From Candidatus Eiseniibacteriota bacterium (lineage in GTDB: Bacteria; Eisenbacteria; RBG-16-71-46; DASYSL01): a stretch of DNA of 52,194 nucleotides. The translations under genes were made by a program, and so were the position numbers. Shown here piece after piece: positions 3,054 through 40,788 of the stretch; the stretch's first letter is position 1, and every line of letters starts with the position of its first letter. The stretch is taken from positions 1 through 52,194 of the forward strand of contig JANPEF010000144.1 of assembly GCA_031431875.1 (NCBI GenBank). The letters are read 5' to 3'. The notes under the pieces were generated by a model. The model was not told the origin of the DNA. It saw nothing but the letters and a program-made list of their open reading frames with translations, and ran no database searches.

Positions 3054-3130
3054 TGGTGACCCGTCTTGGAATCGAACCAAGGACTCCCTGCTTAAAAGGC
3101 AGGTGCTCTGACCGACTGAGCTAACGGGTC
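3054..3130 (-). tRNA. tRNA-Lys (anticodon UUU)
   Basis: GACCCGTTAGCTCAGTCGGTCAGAGCACCTGCCTTTTAAGCAGGGAGTCCTTGGTTCGATTCCAAGACGGGTCACCA: cloverleaf, T-loop GTTCGA, encoded CCA. Confidence 0.97.
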
Positions 3131-4471: not shown

Positions 4472-5745
4472 CGCGACCCCGCGGCGGTCTTTGCGTCGCC
4501 GGGCCGTCGCGTCACGCGGAGCGCGCGCCGCTCGAGCTCGGCGTCGACGTCGGTGAGCGGCACGCCCGCGCGCGCGAGTGCGACGGCCGCCAGGTAGAAC
4601 ACGTCGGCGGCCTCGGCGGCCACGTCGACCGGGGAGACGGCCGCGGCCAGCTCCCCCGCTTCCTCGCGCAGCTTCGCCGCAAGGAGGACCGGGTCAGCGA
4701 GAAGCCGCGCGGTGTACGACCCGGGTGGCGCGGCCGAAGCGCGTTCGATCACGCGGCGGGCGAGCGCGGCGAGTCCCTGCTCCTCGCCCCAGCACGTGCG
4801 CGTGGCGCGGTGGCAGAAGCCAGCGCCGGCCTGGCGCACGGTGAAGCGCAGCGCATCCCGGTCGCAGTCGGTGGCGACAGCGAGCAGCTCCTGCGTCGCG
4901 CCGGAGCTCTCGCCCTTGGCCCACAGGCCGCGCGTGCGCGACCGATAGACCCCGACGCCGCGCTCGAGCGCCGCGCGGAGGCTCTCCGCGCTCGACCAGG
5001 CGAGTCCGAGCGCGCTGCCGCGTTCGTCGCACACGACGGTCGGCCACAGACCGTCGGCGCGATCGCTCACGAGCGGCGCGGCAAAGGCATCCGCCAGGTC
5101 GAGGCGACCGGTGTAGAGCGCCATCCCCACCTGCGCGTCGACGCCGAGCCGGTCGAGCGCGGCAACGTCGGCCGGCGTGGTCACGCCACCCGCCACGGTG
5201 AGCGCCGCGCCGGCCGCGCGCGCCGCCGCGGCAAGTTCGGCGCACCCGGCCAGGTCGATGCCCGCGAGGCGTCCCTCGCGCTCGACGAAGGTGACCAGGA
5301 ACTCCCCGGCGAACCCCGCGAGTTCGCGCATGCGCTCGGCGACACCACGGCCGGTGCGGGTGCGCCAGCCGTCGACGACGACCTCGCCGTCGCGCGCATC
5401 GAGGGCGACGACCACGCGCTCGCGCGGCAGGGCCGCGAGCACGTCCGGACGGGCCGCCGTCCCGAGGACGACGCGGCTGGCGCCGGCATCGAGCCAGGCG
5501 ATGGCGTCGGCGACCGTGCGGATGCCGCCGCCCACGCGGCAGCGCGCCCGGGCGACGAGATCGAGGATCGTCTCCCGGTTCGAGCCCCGCCCCAGCGCCG
5601 CATCGAGGTCGACGACCGCGACTTCGCCGACCCGGCCGAAGCGCGTGGCAAGCGGCCGCGGGTCGCCTGCATCCAGGGCACGGACCTCACCGCCGACGAG
5701 CTGCACGGCGTGTCCCCCCTCGAGGTCGATCGACGGCACGATCAT
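4468..5745 (-). CDS. HisA-like isomerase fused to PR-AMP cyclohydrolase (HisI) and PR-ATP pyrophosphatase (HisE)
   Basis: N-terminal PSIDL...VGGGIR TIM barrel; KGESSG...DCDRD...FCH...TC (HisI); SYTARL...KLREEAGE...EAADVFY (HisE). Confidence 0.88.
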   Translation of the reverse strand: MIVPSIDLEGGHAVQLVGGEVRALDAGDPRPLATRFGRVGEVAVVDLDAALGRGSNRETILDLVARARCRVGGGIRTVADAIAWLDAGASRVVLGTAARPDVLAALPRERVVVALDARDGEVVVDGWRTRTGRGVAERMRELAGFAGEFLVTFVEREGRLAGIDLAGCAELAAAARAAGAALTVAGGVTTPADVAALDRLGVDAQVGMALYTGRLDLADAFAAPLVSDRADGLWPTVVCDERGSALGLAWSSAESLRAALERGVGVYRSRTRGLWAKGESSGATQELLAVATDCDRDALRFTVRQAGAGFCHRATRTCWGEEQGLAALARRVIERASAAPPGSYTARLLADPVLLAAKLREEAGELAAAVSPVDVAAEAADVFYLAAVALARAGVPLTDVDAELERRALRVTRRPGDAKTAAGSR

Positions 5746-6497
5746 GGCCGCACCTCGAAGCCGTCTGCGGCGAGCGCACGCTTGACGTCACCCACGCCGG
5801 TCACCCCATCGTGGAAGATCGTCGCGGCCAGCACGGCCCCGGCGCCGGCGCGGACGGCGGCGGCCAGGTGCCCCGCGCGCGCCGCGCCGCCCGAGGCGAT
5901 GATCGGGACGCGTGTCACCGCCGCGACGGCCGCAATCAGGTCGAGGTCGTAGCCGTCTCCCGTGCCGTCGCGATCCCAGCTCGTGAGCAGGATCTCGCCG
6001 GCGCCGCGCTCGCCGGCCTCGCGGGCCCAGGCGACGGCATCGCGGTCGGAGTCCGCGGCGCCCCCGTGCGTACGCGCCCGCCAGCCGCCTGACGCATCCC
6101 GCGCGGCGTCGATGGCGACGACCGTACACTGGCTCCCGAAGCGCCCGGCGAGCGCGTCGATCAGCCCCGGCTCGCGCACGGCCGCCGAGTTGACGGACAC
6201 CTTGTCGGCGCCGGCGTCGAGCAACTGCGCCGCGTCGTCCGCGCCGCGCACGCCCCCGCCGACGGTGAGCGGAATCGAGAGCGCCGCCCGCACCGCGCGC
6301 ACCACGTCGCGATGCGCACCACGCCCGGCCGGGGTCGCCGCGACATCGAGGACGACGATCTCATCGGCGCCCTGCGCCTCGTAGAGTGCGGCGCGCGCTG
6401 CGGGATCGCCCGCGTCGCGCAGGCCCTGGAAGCGCACGCCCTTAACGATGCGACCGTCTCGCACGTCGAGGCACGGAACGATGCGCACGGTCAGCAT
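5742..6497 (-). CDS. hisF: Imidazole glycerol phosphate synthase cyclase subunit
   Basis: RIVPCLDV, KGVRF, TVGGG, GADKVSVNS, GAGEILLTS.DRDGT, IASGG. Confidence 0.96.
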   Translation of the reverse strand: MLTVRIVPCLDVRDGRIVKGVRFQGLRDAGDPAARAALYEAQGADEIVVLDVAATPAGRGAHRDVVRAVRAALSIPLTVGGGVRGADDAAQLLDAGADKVSVNSAAVREPGLIDALAGRFGSQCTVVAIDAARDASGGWRARTHGGAADSDRDAVAWAREAGERGAGEILLTSWDRDGTGDGYDLDLIAAVAAVTRVPIIASGGAARAGHLAAAVRAGAGAVLAATIFHDGVTGVGDVKRALAADGFEVRP

Positions 6498-7114
6498 CCG
6501 GCCTCCACGGCGCGGGCGATCCACCGCGCGAGGAGCGCCGTGCCCCAGGCGCCCGAGAGTTCGGGGTGGAACTGACAGGCGAGCACGGCGCCGCGCTCGA
6601 GTGCGGCAACCCAGCGGCCGCCGTAGTCGACGAACGAGGCGCGCCAGCCGAAGGGGGCGTCGGCGAGGCGGTAGGAGTTCGCGAAGTAGGCGTGGCCCTC
6701 CTGCACCAGCCCGGCGGGCCCGGCGTCACCGGGGACGACCTGGTTCCAACCCATGTGCGGCACGCGCACCCGGTCGGGCAGTCGCTCGATGCGGCCCGGC
6801 ACGAGACCGAAGCCCGCCACACCCGGGCTCTCCGCGCTCGTCTCGCACAGGAGCTGGAGGCCGAGGCAGACGGCGAGCGTGGGACGCCCCGCCCGCAGGC
6901 GACGCACGAGCGCCTCGCCAAGTCCGCCGGCTGCAAGGCCGGCGAGCGCAGCGCGCGGAGTGCCGACTCCGGGGAGAACCACCCCCCTGGCGCCGTCGAT
7001 GTCCGCGGCATCGCGGGCGAGACGCGGCCGCGCCCCGGCGCGGGCAAGGCCCGCGAGCACCGATGCGGTGTTCGCCGTGCCGGTCGCGACGACGACGATG
7101 TCGGGCACGCTCAC
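6491..7114 (-). CDS. hisH: Imidazole glycerol phosphate synthase glutaminase subunit
   Basis: LPGVG, VCLGLQ, VPHMGWN, QFHPE. Confidence 0.95.
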   Translation of the reverse strand: MSVPDIVVVATGTANTASVLAGLARAGARPRLARDAADIDGARGVVLPGVGTPRAALAGLAAGGLGEALVRRLRAGRPTLAVCLGLQLLCETSAESPGVAGFGLVPGRIERLPDRVRVPHMGWNQVVPGDAGPAGLVQEGHAYFANSYRLADAPFGWRASFVDYGGRWVAALERGAVLACQFHPELSGAWGTALLARWIARAVEAGC

Positions 7115-27464: not shown

Positions 27465-27569
27465 TCAAGCGACAGCGATGGAATCGAGCAGCGCCGCGAC
27501 CCGCGTGTCCAGTTCCCTCGGGTCCGGCGCTGCCCCCGTCTACTGCGCGACGATCCGACCTTCCCGATC
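27465..27569 (-). pseudogene. Remnant of the TlpA C-terminus (paralog of 34343-35071)
   Basis: Translates as DREGRIVAQ*TGAAPDPREL versus intact DREGRIVAQWTGAAPTGAEL (TGG to TAG). Confidence 0.8.
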
Positions 27570-27584
27570 GCACCCGGGACCTCC

Positions 27585-28012
27585 TCAAAACCCGAACGAC
27601 GCAGCGAGCCCCGGCGTCTCGAGCCGGGCCCAGATCAGACTCACGCTCCAGCGCTCGCGTGCGTTGTTGACGAGCGCGTGTGTCCGCTCCTCATCGTACA
27701 TCGGCTGGATCGTCACCCCCGCCGCAAGCTCGATCTAGCCCCCGAATGGCACCTTCCATTCGTCGTCCCACTCGGGGTAGCCGACGGTGCCGTCGACCGT
27801 GACCGGCAAGCGCCCCACGCCCCGCGTCGCCGTAGCGTAACCGGCCTGCGTACCCTCGGGAGAGCCGATGCGATCGACGCGATCTCGCCCACCGCCGGGT
27901 TCACCTCGAACCCGACCGGGAGCGTCGGGATGATCCGGCGCGACAGGGTCGCCCGCCTGCGCGGCCGATCGAGGTCGGTGTCGATGTAGCGCAGCGACGT
28001 GCTCCACGTCGT
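27585..28012 (-). pseudogene. Decayed paralog of the barrel gene at 35083-35799
   Basis: WSTSLRYIDTDLDRPR..ATLSRRIIPT..VG.EVNPAVGE / DRIGSPEGTQ / VPFGG*...QPMYD.ERTHA...AASFGF; internal deletion, frameshift, nonsense codon, no N-terminus. Confidence 0.88.
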
Positions 28013-28064: not shown

Positions 28065-31290
<3,226 letters not shown>

Positions 31291-31301
<11 letters not shown>

Positions 31302-32559
31302 GCTTCGCCTCCGACTTGCCGAGTTCGGCTTTGAGGAGGAACGCGTTCCGGACCACGATCGTGTCCCCGGCGGCGAGGCCCTCGAGGATCTCGGTGCGAT
31401 AGGCGTCGCGGCGCCCCGTGCGCACGGGCTGGCTCTCGAAAGCCCCACCGCTGCGGGCACGGAAGACCGCCTCCCCCGTCCCCATGCGCACGATCGCCTC
31501 CTCGGGCACCGTGATCAAGACGTCGACCTCGTCCACGGCCACCTTCACGTCGACGTACATCCCCGGCTGCCAGCGCCGATCCCGGTTCGGCAGGACGATG
31601 CGTCCCATCGACACGCGCGTCTCCTGCTCGAGCATCGGCCCGACGTAGCGGACTGTTCCGGTGGCCTCGGCGCCGCCCGGAGCGGAGGCGCGCACGATGG
31701 CGGGAAGACCTGGTCGCACGCGGCCCTGGTTGCGGGAATAGATCGGGAAGTCGACCCACACCTCGCTCAGGTCCGCGACGGTGAGGATTTCCTCCTCCTG
31801 GTGGACGGTCTGTCCGGGCGTGGCGCCCTGCCCGATCACGGTCCCGGCGATGCGGGAGACCACCGCGTAGTCGGCAAGGCTCTCGTTGCTCTGGATGATC
31901 GCCACCGTCTCCCCGGCGCGAACGGCATCGCCGAGCCGCTTCCGCAGTTCGCGCAGCGTGCCGGCGTAGCGCGGCGTGACGAGCAGCACGCGCTCCCGAT
32001 TGAGCTTCACCTCGCCCGGTGATTCCTCGAGGATCGACAGCCTCGCCGCACCGGCCGGCGCAACCTCGATGCCGGCATTGATGGCCGCCTGCAGCGCGAG
32101 CTCGATCCGCCCCTCTTCCTGCTCGAAGCGCCACGCCTGCGTCTTTCCCGCCGCCGTCAGGCGGATCTCGGCCGCGTACGAGTGCGGTTCGACGATCGCC
32201 TGCTCAGAATGGAAGTGGTCCCCGTCGACGCGAAACGTGACCCGATCGACCGACCCGTTGAAGCGGGTCAGGTCGACCGCGAGCGACTCGGCGCCGGGCC
32301 GGACGACCTTCATCTCTCCGTCGTAGAGCCATGCCTGCATCGTCGGCGCAGGGCCTTCGTCGTTGACCGCAATTTCGACTGCGCGCTCGCCGGCGTGGAA
32401 GAGTCGCCCGCCGCGCGGCCCGCGCTCGCCCTCCAACTTCATCTCGTCGTGCGTCGCGTGCTCGTCGTGTGCATCCTCGGTGCCAACTCGCCGATCGCAG
32501 CCGGAGGCGACGATCCCGAACATCAGCACCATCGCGGGAATCGACAGGAGTCGCATCAT
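31291..32559 (-). CDS. czcB: RND periplasmic adaptor (CzcB-like), probable lipoprotein
   Basis: Lipobox ASGC, His-rich N-terminus, ADLSEVWV, EILEGL..GD.IV, KAELGK..AKHDH. Confidence 0.9.
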
Positions 32560-33830
32560 CGTTCGGTCTCCAGGCGACGCGCGCCCTCAAGTGTCCACTC
32601 GCGCCAGCGCGAGAGTTCGGCATCCGAGCGTGCGAGGTCGCCCTGCACGTCGATCAGGGCGAGGTCCACTTCGCGCAGTGAGCGTCGGGCTTCGATCGGC
32701 TCGAGGCCCGAGACGCGGCCGGCACGATACGCCACGTCGATCTGCTCGAGGGCAGACGCGAGGGCTGGCCGGACCTGATCGCGCAGGGCCCGTTCCTGGG
32801 CCGCGGTCGCATCGCGACGGGCGCGGATCGACTCGTACTCCACGGTGAGCCGTCGCGTGACTTCCTGGGCCCGGAGGCGCGCGGCGCGATTCCGTGCGTC
32901 CGCCGCATCCGCCTCGGTCCCCGCTCCGCTCCACAGCGGAAGCTTCGTGCTGACGCCGACCATGAGGCCCACGCCGTTTTCCTCCTCGAGCCGACGCACG
33001 CCCATCAGCAACCCGAGATCGGGCACGCTGGCTGAACGGGCGATGCGCGCTTCGGCGGCGGCAAGCTGCGCCTCGGCCTCGGCGCGCACCTGGTCCGGCT
33101 GCGCGGCGGCGGAAAACGCCGGAGTGCCTTGCGCGATCAGGGAGTCGCCGGGCGCATCGAGCGCGAGGGAGTCGACGGACACGGACGGCCCGAGCAACGA
33201 GGCGAGCCGCCGTGACGCGGCCGCTCGATCGGCGTGTAACCTCGACTGTTCGACCCGGCGCATCTGCAGTTCTGCCTCGGCGCGAAGGGCCTCGCCCAAC
33301 GGCGCCGCCCCGGCTCGGTGGCGGTTGCGCGAAATGCGGCTCCCCTCGTCGGCGAGCTCGACGAAGTGCGCCTGCAGCGCGAACTTCTCCTGCAGGATCC
33401 AGGCTGCGATGAACTCCTCATCCACTCGTGCCACGACGTCGCGGGAGACGAGGGTTCCTTCGGCCCGCGCGATCTGGATCGACGCGTCCGCCAGATCGAC
33501 ACGCGCGCCGCGATCACCGCCCAATTCGAGCGGCTGTTCGACGAAGATCGCCGACTCGCGAATGGAGCCGCCGAGATCGAGGCCGAAGTTCTCGACTCCG
33601 AGGCCGACGGTCGGGCCGGACAGTCGCCCGGCGACGGAGCGCCGCAGGCGTGCGGCCTCCACGGTCTCGCCAGCCGCGCGGGGCGCCGGCAGGTGCTGCA
33701 GCGCCGCGGCTCGGGCGTGGGAGAGCTGGAGCGGCGGGCCCGCCGCGAAGGCGACCCCGACGCATTGCGTCATGAACGCACCGGCGACGAGAACGCCTCG
33801 CAGGCGCGCTTCTGGAATTGATTCGAACAC
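32556..33830 (-). CDS. czcC: TolC family outer-membrane factor (CzcC-like)
   Basis: EQPLELGG.R.AR, PDLGL, LPLW, AYRAG helical repeats; GTG 33830 after a G-rich RBS. Confidence 0.85.
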   Translation of the reverse strand: MFESIPEARLRGVLVAGAFMTQCVGVAFAAGPPLQLSHARAAALQHLPAPRAAGETVEAARLRRSVAGRLSGPTVGLGVENFGLDLGGSIRESAIFVEQPLELGGDRGARVDLADASIQIARAEGTLVSRDVVARVDEEFIAAWILQEKFALQAHFVELADEGSRISRNRHRAGAAPLGEALRAEAELQMRRVEQSRLHADRAAASRRLASLLGPSVSVDSLALDAPGDSLIAQGTPAFSAAAQPDQVRAEAEAQLAAAEARIARSASVPDLGLLMGVRRLEEENGVGLMVGVSTKLPLWSGAGTEADAADARNRAARLRAQEVTRRLTVEYESIRARRDATAAQERALRDQVRPALASALEQIDVAYRAGRVSGLEPIEARRSLREVDLALIDVQGDLARSDAELSRWREWTLEGARRLETER

Positions 33831-33905
33831 GAAGAGTCCCCCCTCGAGGATCCGACAGTTACGGCGCACGCGATCGTGCCGCCGTGAGTCAGTTCGAGGT
33901 GGGGA

Positions 33906-34310
33906 TCAGCAGCGCAGGAGGGTGGTCCGGAGGTGTCGCGGGAGGGAGGTGAACTCTTCTGCCGTCGCCGAACAATCGCTGGCGAGTTCCGTATCGCACT
34001 GTGCCGAACATCCGGTCACGCGCGGGAGAACGACGGGCTCGCACCCGACATGGATGCCGAGGCCGGCATCGGAACGCAGGAGTGCGGCCCCGCCGAGTTG
34101 CGCATCGAAGCACGGGCCACAGTCGCCCATGCTGCACGGCTCGGATCCCGCGGCAGCATCGGGATGTTGGTCCGCACAGTCGCCCGCCCCCACCTCGAGT
34201 GCAAGATGTCCGTCCGCGCCCAGGCAAACGAGCCAGCCACCGGGAGCGACCGAAGTCGCGAACACGGCGCAGGCCAGAATCAGGACGCGGAGAAGTGGCG
34301 AGACACGCAT
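33906..34310 (-). CDS. Small secreted Cys/His-rich protein (CzcI/DUF2946-like leader gene)
   Basis: Signal peptide, VCLGADGH...DC...C..DCGPC.D, ends TTLLRC; directly upstream of czcC. Confidence 0.65.
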   Translation of the reverse strand: MRVSPLLRVLILACAVFATSVAPGGWLVCLGADGHLALEVGAGDCADQHPDAAAGSEPCSMGDCGPCFDAQLGGAALLRSDAGLGIHVGCEPVVLPRVTGCSAQCDTELASDCSATAEEFTSLPRHLRTTLLRC

Positions 34311-34342: not shown

Positions 34343-35071
34343 TCAAGGGGCCTGCCCCACGGCGAGCATCTTGTCCAGCAGCCCCTCGAGCTCGGCACCG
34401 GTCGGCGCCGCCCCCGTCCACTGCGCGACGATCCGACCCTCGCGATCGATCAGGAACGCCGCCGGAACGGCCTTCACGCGAAAGCGCTCCCACAGGGGTT
34501 CCTCGGCGGTGTCGATCGCGATCGGATAGGCGATCTTCTTCTCGGCGATGAACTTCTTCACCTTCTTCGCCGTGTCGGGGCCGGGCTCGTCGATCGAGAT
34601 GCCGAACACGGAGAACCCCCGGTCCGCGTACCGCGCATGCACCGCCTGCAACTCCGGCATCGACTTGCGGCAGGGCAGGCACCAGGTCGCCCAGAAGTCG
34701 ACGAGGGTGACCTCGCCCGCGAAGCGCGCCGAGTTCAGCGGCTGCTTCGCCAGGTCGACCAGCGCCATCCCCGCCCACGGTGCCGGCCGCGGCAGCACCG
34801 GCCGCGCATAGGCCGCGGGGTCGGTGTCGAACTCCTTCGCGCAGCCCTCGTTGCAGAGCGCGTAGACCACGCCCTCGTACGTGCGCACGGCCACCACGGG
34901 CTCCAGATGCGTCGAGCCCTCGCGCACCGCGCAGACCGCACAGATCTGCTCGCGCTTCGCCGCTGCCGTGGTGTCCACCTTCGCGACGTCGGCGGCGAGA
35001 GCGGCGACCGGCACGATGCCCAGAGCGACCAGCACCGCCGCGCATGCAACCCAGCGCATTCCAGTTCTCAT
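34343..35071 (-). CDS. Secreted YHS-domain + TlpA thioredoxin-like disulfide reductase
   Basis: Signal peptide; CAVC...YEGVVYALCNEGCAKEF..DP..Y (YHS); DFWATWCLPC and VPAAFLIDREG (TlpA). Confidence 0.88.
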   Translation of the reverse strand: MRTGMRWVACAAVLVALGIVPVAALAADVAKVDTTAAAKREQICAVCAVREGSTHLEPVVAVRTYEGVVYALCNEGCAKEFDTDPAAYARPVLPRPAPWAGMALVDLAKQPLNSARFAGEVTLVDFWATWCLPCRKSMPELQAVHARYADRGFSVFGISIDEPGPDTAKKVKKFIAEKKIAYPIAIDTAEEPLWERFRVKAVPAAFLIDREGRIVAQWTGAAPTGAELEGLLDKMLAVGQAP

Positions 35072-35082
35072 GACAGTCCCTC

Positions 35083-35799
35083 CTACCAGCCGAACGAGGC
35101 GGCGATACCGAAGTCCTCGAGCCAGGCGTAGACCAGGCTCACGCTGGCGCGGTCGCGCGCATACGTGAGGATGGCGTGAGTGCGTTCTCCGTCGTACATC
35201 GGCTGCACCGAGACACGCGGCACGATCTCGACGTAGGCGCCGAACGGCACGTTCCAGCCTTCATCCCACTCCGAATAGTTGAGCGTCCCGTACACGGTCG
35301 CCGGCAGCGAGCCCAGGCTGCGGCTCGCCGTCGCGTAGTACGACTGCGTCCCTTCCGGGGACCCGATCCGGTCCGAGCTCGTGCCGAGGAACACCGTGGG
35401 CCGGATCGAGCCCTCGGACAGCACGAACCACGTCACGATCGGACCGACCTCGCCCACGGCCGGGTTCACCTCGAGCCCCACCTGCAGAGTGGGGAGGATT
35501 CGCCGCGACAGCGTCGCCCGCCAGCGCGGCCGAGCGAGGTCGGTGTCGACGTAGCGCAGCGACGTCGACCACTTCGTCTGGAGTCCGCTCCCCCGGAGCG
35601 GCGCGCCCTCGCCGGGTCAGCCGCTTCAGGTCGGTGCCGAAAGACGCGCGCGCTTTGCCGGCGGCGGCGACGGTGTCGTCGGTGTTTCGACGGCCGTCGA
35701 GTCGCCGTCTGCGGCAAACGCGGGCGCCGGAGCAATCGTCGCGACGAAAGCAAGTGCCAGGACAAATCCGGATGCCAGCCGGGATGAACGTGAATGCAT
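35083..35799 (-). CDS. Putative double-selenocysteine (U58-S-G-U61) secreted outer-membrane beta-barrel protein, 238 aa
   Basis: ORFs 35626-36000 and 35083-35481 share a frame and are separated only by TGA 35626-35628 and TGA 35617-35619; GAGGA RBS, signal peptide, Pro linker, barrel ending SFGW; paralog confirms coding upstream of 35481. Confidence 0.75.
35581..35610 (-). promoter_or_regulatory. Candidate bacterial SECIS hairpin
   Basis: CCGCTCC-GGG-GGAGCGG (35601-35585), G-rich apical loop 22 and 31 nt after the two UGAs; possible lower GAG/CTC stem. Confidence 0.55.
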
Positions 35800-35866
35800 G
35801 ACGAGTCCTCGCAGGGTCGGAAGTCGACGGAATGGTGTCGGGTGATGCTTCCGGACTACGGAGGTC

Positions 35867-36193
35867 TCAGTTGCGGAGGGGGTAGTGGTGTGCGGAGTCG
35901 GTCGGGCCGCGAGGCGCCGCGCCGAATCGCGGGCGGGGTCCCGCGAGGGGCAGCGCCGTGGCAGCATCATCGATGCGGGAAGGCAGGAACGCCGGGGCAT
36001 CGACCGCGAAGCGATCGAGCACGAACGTCGGCGCGGGCGTGGCGTGCGTCAGGGTGCAGTCGGCAGTCGCGCCGATGGGGCACGCCGTTTCTTCGCTGCA
36101 GCACGCATCGGCCGGGTCGGGCGCGCAGCAGAGCACTCCTGCGACCGGCAGGAACAAGGCGAGAACGAGGAGGGCGCCACGGAGGAGTCGCAC
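35867..36193 (-). CDS. Small secreted/membrane Cys-rich protein (DUF2946-like)
   Basis: Hydrophobic N-terminus, LCC...ACC...CP...C, Pro-rich C-terminus ending HHYPLRN; extended -10 (TGcTACTCT) 6 nt before GTG. Confidence 0.6.
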   Translation of the reverse strand: MRLLRGALLVLALFLPVAGVLCCAPDPADACCSEETACPIGATADCTLTHATPAPTFVLDRFAVDAPAFLPSRIDDAATALPLAGPRPRFGAAPRGPTDSAHHYPLRN

Positions 36194-40151: not shown

Positions 40152-40496
40152 TCAGGGGCTTTGGGTCGGAATGATCCGCTCGAGCTCCGCTACCAGCCCC
40201 GGCAAGTCGACCTGCACGGTGCGCCAGAGAATGTCGAGGTTGATGTCGAAGTAGGCATGCACCAGGCGATGCCTCATCCCGATGACGTCTGCCCAGGGAA
40301 GTTGCGGAGATGCTCCCCGCGTCTCCTCCGAAAGCCGGTAGGCCGCCTCCCCGATGATCTCGATCTCCTTGACCAACGACAGGGCCAATTGCCGATCCGT
40401 GCCGAGATCCGTGCGGCTCCGGTCCCGTGTGAACGAGATCGCTTCGCGCGCCGCATCGAGCATGTGCCGAAGCCGGACTTCGTCATCACTGCGCAT
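40152..40496 (-). CDS. HepT-like HEPN ribonuclease toxin (DUF86)
   Basis: [15 protein letters not shown] (RX4HXY). Confidence 0.9.
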
Positions 40497-40788
40497 ACTG
40501 GACCTCCGCCTCCTCGAGCACGCGCTGCCGGAAGTACCGGCTGAGATCCTCTGCCGTTCGCATGTCCACACGCCGACCGTCAAAGAGAACCGAGAGCTCC
40601 CGTTCCATGCGAGCCACGCCCAGGAGCCCGGGGATGCGATCGGGCTCAAATTCCACCAGCACATCCACATCGCTGTCCGGCCGGAAGTCGGCGCGCAGTG
40701 CGGAGCCGAATATCGCGAATCGTCGGACGCCATTCTGCTGGCAGAACGATGCGATTCGTTGGCGTGAGACTTGCAGGTTTGCGTTCAT
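40486..40788 (-). CDS. MntA-like minimal nucleotidyltransferase antitoxin
   Basis: [17 protein letters not shown] (GSX10DXD); overlaps the HEPN gene. Confidence 0.9.

Follow-up and report, generated by a model that had tools for sequence, protein, structure and literature searches.

The gene analysed here lies in a 52,194-nt stretch of DNA, hereafter the window, which is contig C144 of a Candidatus Eiseniibacteriota genome (3.75 Mb, 98% complete). Its reading frame starts with an ATG at 35799 on the reverse strand, 6 nt after a GAGGA sequence, and encodes a hydrophobic N-terminal stretch running to AFA-A followed by a Pro/Thr linker. Past the linker the frame reads SAPT-TGA-AGC-GGC-TGA-PGEGAPLRGSG, and 177 open codons then lead to SFGW and a TAG stop. 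The initial annotation had described this frame, with its ribosome binding site, as a hidden outer membrane barrel gene with two selenocysteine (Sec) codons, and every element that it listed was present when the DNA was re-read. The features of the locus are collected in Table 1.

Table 1. Features at and around the UxxU barrel gene, in window coordinates
Feature	Position	Strand	Description
Cys-rich exported leader ORF	35867..36193	-	108 aa; CC..CC..C..C, Pro-rich tail, ends LRN-TGA; CutF-like layout
Spacer	35800..35866	-	67 nt; predicted fold over the barrel Shine-Dalgarno GAGGA (35810-35806)
Full barrel gene	35083..35799	-	238 aa with two Sec: signal peptide, linker, UxxU motif, 12-stranded barrel
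Predicted Sec-pathway signal peptide	35713..35799	-	aa 1-29; read from sequence
UGA codon 58 (Sec, predicted)	35626..35628	-	TGA in 100/100 loci; Cys in 13 homologs
UGA codon 61 (Sec, predicted)	35617..35619	-	TGA in 100/100 loci; Cys in 12 homologs, Trp in 1
SECIS hairpin	35585..35601	-	6-bp stem, loop C-G-G/U-G-G; 21 nt after U61, 30 nt after U58
Predicted 12-stranded outer membrane beta-barrel	35086..35571	-	aa 77-238; aromatic C-terminal residue; AlphaFold2 and structural matches
Partner gene	34343..35071	-	Signal peptide, YHS/TRASH-like domain (CxxC..C..C, 34960-34787), TlpA-type thioredoxin (WCLPC)
Second Cys-rich leader-like ORF	33905..34310	-	Ends LLRC; before the efflux genes; outside the conserved module
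CzcCBA-like heavy-metal RND efflux genes	28065..33869	-	Local context only
Decayed barrel duplicate and TlpA 3' end remnant	27525..28012	-	Barrel 28012-27585; TlpA remnant 27570-27525

A six-frame count in this genome gives 1261 cases of TGA-x-x-TGA, 90 of them with open flanks. Because the pattern is so common by chance, its spacing alone is no evidence, and the case for Sec rests on conservation in homologs. We read homologous loci as DNA: 3 from genomes, the best 80 of 256 from metagenomes, and 30 and then 20 more from the phylum. TGA was found at both positions in all 111 loci that cover the site (113 were examined, including the window's own, and 2 were cut), and the pair was present in 19 of the 20 added phylum loci, the remaining one having no match. 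After dereplication at 90% nucleotide identity, both TGAs were found in 100 of 100 loci, the window's own copy among them; these loci are related and do not amount to 100 independent trials. One row (L109) derives from an unpublished genome (G072), and none of the conclusions needs it. The placement of the UGAs at codons 58 and 61 in CxxC spacing thus held in every locus that covers the site, and the objection that they are sequencing errors fails because 100 distinct loci share them. The codons flanking the UGAs vary synonymously, with Ser59 written both as AGY and as TCC.

The family is widespread. At E <= 0.001 a search matched 527 proteins, carriers make up 45 of the 206 genomes of the phylum, and neighbouring clusters belong mostly to Acidobacteriota and Armatimonadota. 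DNA of the locus occurs in freshwater-sediment metagenomes; the datasets listed for this DNA included no RNA datasets, and no plasmid match for the locus was found. Tandem copies occur in L036 and in a genome of the same genus, L001, in which both copies are intact (4813-5337 and 6001-6528) and carry the UGA pair, with a leader before the second only.

Homologs with Cys at the two positions were sought with a profile search over 1.84 billion representatives, which gave 220 hits. Among the 150 listed, 63 begin within 15 residues of the barrel and 58 are internal fragments, while 12 carry CxxC and 1 carries CxxW, as far from the first strand as UxxU is. The other 16 are longer proteins without CxxC, several of which look chimeric or frameshifted; two, P0185 and P0240, which lack Cys but begin with a signal-like sequence, appear to have lost the motif. 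P0153 is 35% identical and has APTCxGC in register with UxxU; in P0244, too, the site reads CxxC. The Cys form is chiefly PTCAGCAGEA, with named members from Armatimonadota and Fimbriimonadaceae. Comparison of homologs at codons 58 and 61, which the initial annotation had proposed as a check, therefore gave TGA/TGA or, in distant homologs, Cys/Cys. In a tree of 72 rows, 10 CxxC rows and 2 truncated rows formed one starred group near the UGA rows; since no deep branch is starred and the tree is rooted at its midpoint, we draw no direction of Sec/Cys change from it. His-rich insertions or tails were seen in P0171, P0158, P0244, P0204, P0258 and P0211, some of them in the loop after strand 3, and a strict three-His pattern is passed by only 5 of the 150 listed representatives.

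The available text of a recent selenoprotein catalogue (PMC13188914) models the bacterial SECIS element as a hairpin 16-37 nt from the UGA with a stem of 4-16 bp, a loop of 3-9 nt with G in its first two places and the pattern N1-G-[G/U]-N-N2, and a minimum free energy of at most -7.5. In our own implementation of this consensus model, all 100 sequences passed the loop and energy test, and both spacings fell inside 16-37 nt. Over the same sequences 95% of stem cells pair, compared with 42-68% in slid controls, and the stem shows 13 double changes, a number that 0 of 500 shuffles reached; the count of pair types was not significant (30/500). RNAalifold recovered the same stem. Third positions of codons 67-70 vary little: their entropy is 0.23-0.44 bits, whereas the lowest value among 32 barrel sites is 0.98 and the mean there 1.45. 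Arg69 is written only with codons ending in G or U, even though barrel codons end most often in C. Within the loop one G is invariant and the next base is G in 91 sequences and U in 9. Thus the hairpin that had been noted at a SECIS-typical distance past the UGAs passed the covariation test and lies where synonymous change is suppressed. Taken alone the window's hairpin is not unusually stable (z = -0.96), and the lowest-energy fold of this sequence is another one, for which comparative support is weaker. An alternative hairpin pairing codons 59-62 with codons 64-68 (91% paired, 6 double changes, 9/500) was rejected as the SECIS, since its comparative support is weaker and it would presumably sit under a ribosome decoding either UGA. 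The Pro62 codon after the second UGA (35619-35614, reverse strand) lies outside the SECIS stem and is CCC in 96 of 100 loci, with an entropy of 0.24 bits; this near-fixed codon perhaps reflects stop-codon context or a lower stem.

The genome has the machinery for Sec insertion. selA, selB and selD were found over the cut-off together with tRNA-Sec, so that the set of sel genes whose presence had been proposed as a check is complete, and the formate dehydrogenase FdhA has an RT-TGA-HAP site. Because selA is nearly universal in the phylum (over the cut-off in 38 of 43 carriers and in 181 of 206 genomes), its co-occurrence with the family adds nothing; the three carriers without selA all have a selB match, over the cut-off in two, and two of the three have tRNA-Sec. 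A genome-wide SECIS scan gives leads only, since it missed both FdhA and the barrel gene. Further likely selenoprotein sites are FdhA itself (RT-U-HAP; C135 near 1586), an exported CG-U-H protein, which we take to be UshA-like (C82 near 61172, forward strand), an exported thioredoxin-like protein with WAPW-U-HSC (C131 near 51467, forward strand) and a redoxin-like protein with GYS-U-PFC (C153, reverse strand, 41172 on the reversed contig). SelD (C72:16840-17763, reverse strand) is of the Cys form, AGCAAK, and is not a selenoprotein.

The barrel-like domain that had been read from the sequence was modelled confidently. AlphaFold2, given residues 50-238 with Sec as Cys and 75 rows, returned a mean pLDDT of 87.5 and 13 strand elements, counted as 12 strands, and by prediction the protein has the signal peptide, the even strand number and the C-terminal aromatic residue of an outer membrane barrel. 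The best structural matches were 12-stranded outer membrane barrels: FapF (Z 16.5, rmsd 2.4, 168 aligned), KdgM of the KdgM/NanC porins (Z 15.9, rmsd 2.5, 152 aligned), COG4313 (Pput2725; Z 15.7, rmsd 2.7, 164 aligned) and autotransporters. FapF, COG4313 and KdgM have no known dithiol or diselenol plug; they share 8-14% identity with the barrel here and no sequence-profile match, and the common fold shows no function. In the model the UxxU motif does not lie within a thioredoxin fold. The alignments to FapF, COG4313 and autotransporters start as early as model residues 1-11, a hint that the N-terminal segment would run in the barrel lumen; with a pLDDT of 53-56 for the UxxU segment, this placement rests only on the alignment ranges to plugged barrels. 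The available text on COG4313 describes an N-terminal segment that occludes the lumen (PMC4493636).

By sequence the read-through protein gave 0 hits in Pfam and NCBIfam and no PDB hit at E <= 1, and 75 family members gave two single weak HMM hits, one to YaiO (E 0.004) and one to an unrelated family. A YjbH-like cluster is a language-model neighbour at 0.96, with PF06082 in 83% of its members; neither the query nor 17 homologs gave a Pfam hit. Complex prediction for the barrel from G63 onward, a construct that excludes the UxxU segment, with the YHS domain of the partner scored 0.01; controls were not folded.

The partner gene is linked to the barrel gene in 75 of 84 informative loci (101 loci, 17 of them with too little downstream DNA). 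A YHS gene comes next in 70, a thioredoxin only in 1, YHS is fused ahead of the UGAs in 3 and the pair lies upstream in 1, leaving 9 with none. The YHS domain has four invariant Cys, and the TlpA active site is WCxxC wherever the pattern found it. YHS is described as a probable copper sensor in the accessible part of PMC4626032. In L046, L070, L072 and L149, YHS is fused between the signal peptide and UxxU, with no TlpA at the locus in the three tested, and fused YHS domains are also found in 5 Cys homologs. No recurring metal-transport family was found among 128 neighbouring ORFs from 38 loci, nor did a motif scan of 101 loci find CzcA, P1B-ATPase or MerR motifs.

A Cys-rich leader precedes the barrel gene in 28 of 89 loci with enough DNA; the pattern search gave 29, of which L097 was false, and as it misses a few more leaders the count is of those matched. 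The leaders are about 110 aa long and end 48-67 nt before the barrel start; they are hydrophobic at the N-terminus and Pro-rich in the tail and share six conserved Cys. The predicted pairing of the barrel Shine-Dalgarno sequence is 0.93, compared with 0.82 in mononucleotide shuffles, and is higher in 22 of 28 loci, a modest effect. No family hit was obtained for the leader, and none of the 28 matched PF11162. In 27 of them the peptide ends in LR[N/I/L/S] or PRN and in one (L135) in RAPP-SRS, and all 28 stop at TGA (35869-35867 in the window), which is the terminal stop of 67 of 98 barrel genes. This uniform stop may reflect arrest at termination, as occurs in TnaC, or selenium-linked read-through.

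The layout of the leader resembles that of CutF/CruR (DUF2946), which in the available portions of PMC9973294 and PMC9426467 are peptides of about 110 aa with an export signal, a Cys motif and a Pro-rich tail, encoded immediately before the gene of an exported protein, the Shine-Dalgarno sequence of which is covered by a hairpin. Nascent exported CutF senses copper and opens that hairpin (PMC9973294, as far as available), and by analogy we infer that the leader here acts in the same way. The leader differs from CutF/CruR in having CC..CC..C..C rather than CxxC/CxxxC and LR[N/I/L]-UGA rather than RAPP, in addition to giving no PF11162 hit; the DUF2946 arrangement of CxxC and RAPP about 45 residues apart is absent, RAPP being found in 1 of 28 leaders.

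From the comparative evidence we conclude that the gene almost certainly encodes an exported 238-aa selenoprotein, and we are equally confident that the residues at both UGAs are Sec rather than Cys. What the protein does is a matter of lesser certainty, and on balance we favour a role as the outer membrane part of a small cassette that handles soft metals (Cu/Ag/Hg-type). With SelB on a single SECIS hairpin, 30 and 21 nt past the two UGAs, Sec would be inserted at both, placing PT-U-S-G-U-P before the barrel. The UxxU segment would then lie in the barrel or at its periplasmic mouth, where two selenolates could bind an ion, the YHS domain of the partner might take or buffer the metal, and the TlpA domain would re-reduce the diselenide. 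At about a third of loci, the Cys-rich nascent leader probably senses periplasmic metal, stalls and opens the hairpin over the barrel ribosome binding site. As the leader's layout suggests induction by metal, the role would be protection or sequestration rather than scavenging. Taken jointly, a single SECIS for both UGAs, UxxU at the pore, metal binding, reduction by TlpA and induction through the leader make up a moderately probable whole. In its favour are the linked or fused YHS domain with its four Cys, the leader and, at this locus, the czcCBA-like genes that follow. Against it count the absence of recurring metal-transport neighbours, the loci without a partner and the presence of the leader in a minority of loci. 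A functional analogue is PcoB, the outer membrane barrel of a copper-defence system that, according to the available text of PMC9210255, admits copper to the periplasm. Structurally PcoB ranks only 27th (Z 8.6, rmsd 4.4, 151 aligned), and no pco/cop genes were seen near barrel loci; there is also no sequence similarity.

The same selenoprotein could instead be purely redox, with UxxU as a diselenide/selenol couple fed by TlpA and YHS structural or regulatory. Such a protein might act on a substrate outside the cell or in the periplasm, reducing disulfides, polysulfide, oxyanions of selenium or arsenic, or oxidants, or it might redox-gate the pore. The conserved partner is indeed a dedicated TlpA thioredoxin, metal-transport neighbours do not recur, and a redox function is assumed for most catalogued selenoproteins of the CxxC type (PMC13188914, available text). 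However, the domain that is found fused to the barrel is YHS and not TlpA, in Sec and Cys clades alike, the motif lies outside a thioredoxin fold, and the leader resembles the metal-sensing CutF. We regard the redox reading as possible, and less probable than metal handling. The initial annotation had left the two open; the partner gene and the leader, which it did not mention, tilt this putative assignment toward metal. A more elaborate form of the metal reading, which we offer as speculation that is rather unlikely to hold in full, is a selenium-gated porin. Here a diselenide/selenolate plug would sit in a minimal 12-stranded channel, a soft metal would open or load it, and YHS-TlpA would reset it; synthesis would be licensed twice after transcription, once by the leader, as a new class of metal-sensing peptide with LRN-UGA, and once by selenium supply through double UGA recoding with one SECIS.

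Recoding of one or both UGAs as Cys by a tRNA-ReC (SelC*) system is improbable. tRNA-ReC is reported to be enriched in genomes with UxxU hydrogenases, about 56% of which have it (PMC13582414, available part), and homologs of the barrel protein do carry Cys. At default thresholds, though, this 98% complete genome gave a single tRNA-Sec (tca), a single tRNA-Cys of ordinary type with 76 nt and a single SelB over the cut-off, and neither a second tca tRNA nor a second SelB; ARAGORN at low threshold made dozens of doubtful tca/gca calls.

A still smaller chance attaches to the UGAs being true stops, with a short secreted peptide, a barrel translated from a downstream start and a conserved stretch that serves as regulatory RNA. 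Nucleotides around the UGAs are very highly conserved (mean column identity 89%), and all 120 homologs among the matches listed are called as barrel-only proteins of 137-171 aa, which is also what truncation at an upstream UGA would produce. However, neither TAA nor TAG was ever found in the 200 codons of the 100 dereplicated loci, whose terminal stops are TGA in 67, TAG in 24 and TAA in 7 (2 are cut). The start codon chosen by gene callers corresponds to CTC, CTT or ATT in 55 of 95 contexts, and Cys homologs are continuous proteins. True stops would also leave the barrel without an export signal, a point that the initial annotation had raised and that the family bears out: in 88 of 98 loci a hydrophobic stretch precedes the UGAs in frame, compared with 2 of 98 in each other frame.

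That UGA is read as Trp (code 4-like), or that the TGAs are assembly errors, is hardly credible. The motif does read C-V-G-W-P in one homolog cluster (P0139/P0272), as a genuine Cys/Trp variant or because a gene caller translated a TGA as Trp. Against these readings, TGA is the usual terminal stop and also ends the partner gene, tRNA-Sec is the sole tca tRNA found at default threshold, TGG was found at neither site in 95 contexts, and a contig from a different study spans both TGA codons, its sole difference being at 35718.

The preferred reading, a UxxU selenoprotein of the outer membrane, was compared with known families. The initial annotation had not recognised a named selenoprotein family, and we likewise obtained no Pfam or NCBIfam match and, in the available part of the 119-family 2026 catalogue (PMC13188914) and in NCBIfam 20.0, no match by name, motif or model. 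The available texts on BSepDB, deep-Sep and SelCysML contain neither 'barrel' nor 'UxxU', and that of the BSepDB supplement no 'porin' either. Among the papers listed in our literature search none described the barrel family, and none was on selenoproteins in Eisenbacteria. Catalogued UxxU selenoproteins are a PF00578 Prx-like thiol:disulfide oxidoreductase, the NF041115 metal-binding protein, the TIGR02605 FmdB-family and the UxxU type of Group 4 [NiFeSe] hydrogenase. Like the barrel family they have two Sec in CxxC spacing (PMC13188914, available text); unlike it they have other folds, none of them an outer membrane barrel, and no HMM match to it. One downstream SECIS for both Sec has been proposed for the UxxU hydrogenases (PMC13582414, available part) and probably serves the catalogued UxxU families and the barrel family alike.

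In the available 119-family table, the only outer membrane selenoproteins recognisable by name are the GSU2204-family MtrB/PioB barrel (NF041027) and the FCYXU TonB-dependent receptor (NF049945). Each has one Sec, and 75 barrel-family members gave no hit to either at E <= 0.05. Barrels of the MtrB/PioB and TonB-dependent receptor types are much larger, whereas the barrel here has 12 short strands in about 162 residues. A Campylobacter iron acquisition cluster also combines YHS (FetA) with periplasmic thioredoxins (FetE/FetF), according to the available text of PMC10783030. Unlike the barrel cassette, it is an inner membrane/ABC system with no barrel and no Sec, and YHS and thioredoxin are on separate proteins.

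The recoding is thus ordinary Sec recoding, but on an uncatalogued family and an unusual scaffold. Databases hold this widespread family only as a truncated, signal-less hypothetical protein, and a Sec pair on a small porin-like barrel is a setting absent from the 119-family catalogue as far as it is available. With 100 natural variants and Cys controls, the family offers a natural test case of whether a single SECIS suffices for two UGAs three codons apart. By analogy with CutF, its leader points to an unnamed family of candidate metal-sensing leader peptides.

The efflux genes of the window are particular to it, since czcCBA was not found beside other homologs. The leader-like ORF before them is CzcI-like by position; it gave no Pfam hit and has one homolog, after the partner gene in L112. 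Beyond czcCBA lie a decayed barrel and a TlpA remnant, which suggest that the efflux genes arrived with a duplication or recombination at the barrel cassette. The decayed copy has a deletion with a frame change and an internal TAG, and it lacks the signal peptide, the UGA pair and the hairpin. It had been cited as a paralog proving that the DNA between the UGAs and the annotated start is coding, and this stands from W77 onward but does not extend across the UGAs. A joint between 34448 and 35445 in the contig of the other study was considered as a deletion and rejected, as it probably reflects mapping of the decayed paralog. Elsewhere in the window, a tRNA-Lys(ttt) gene lies at 3054-3130 (reverse strand), and a HepT-like RNase of a bacterial toxin-antitoxin type (40152-40733, reverse strand) adjoins purA.
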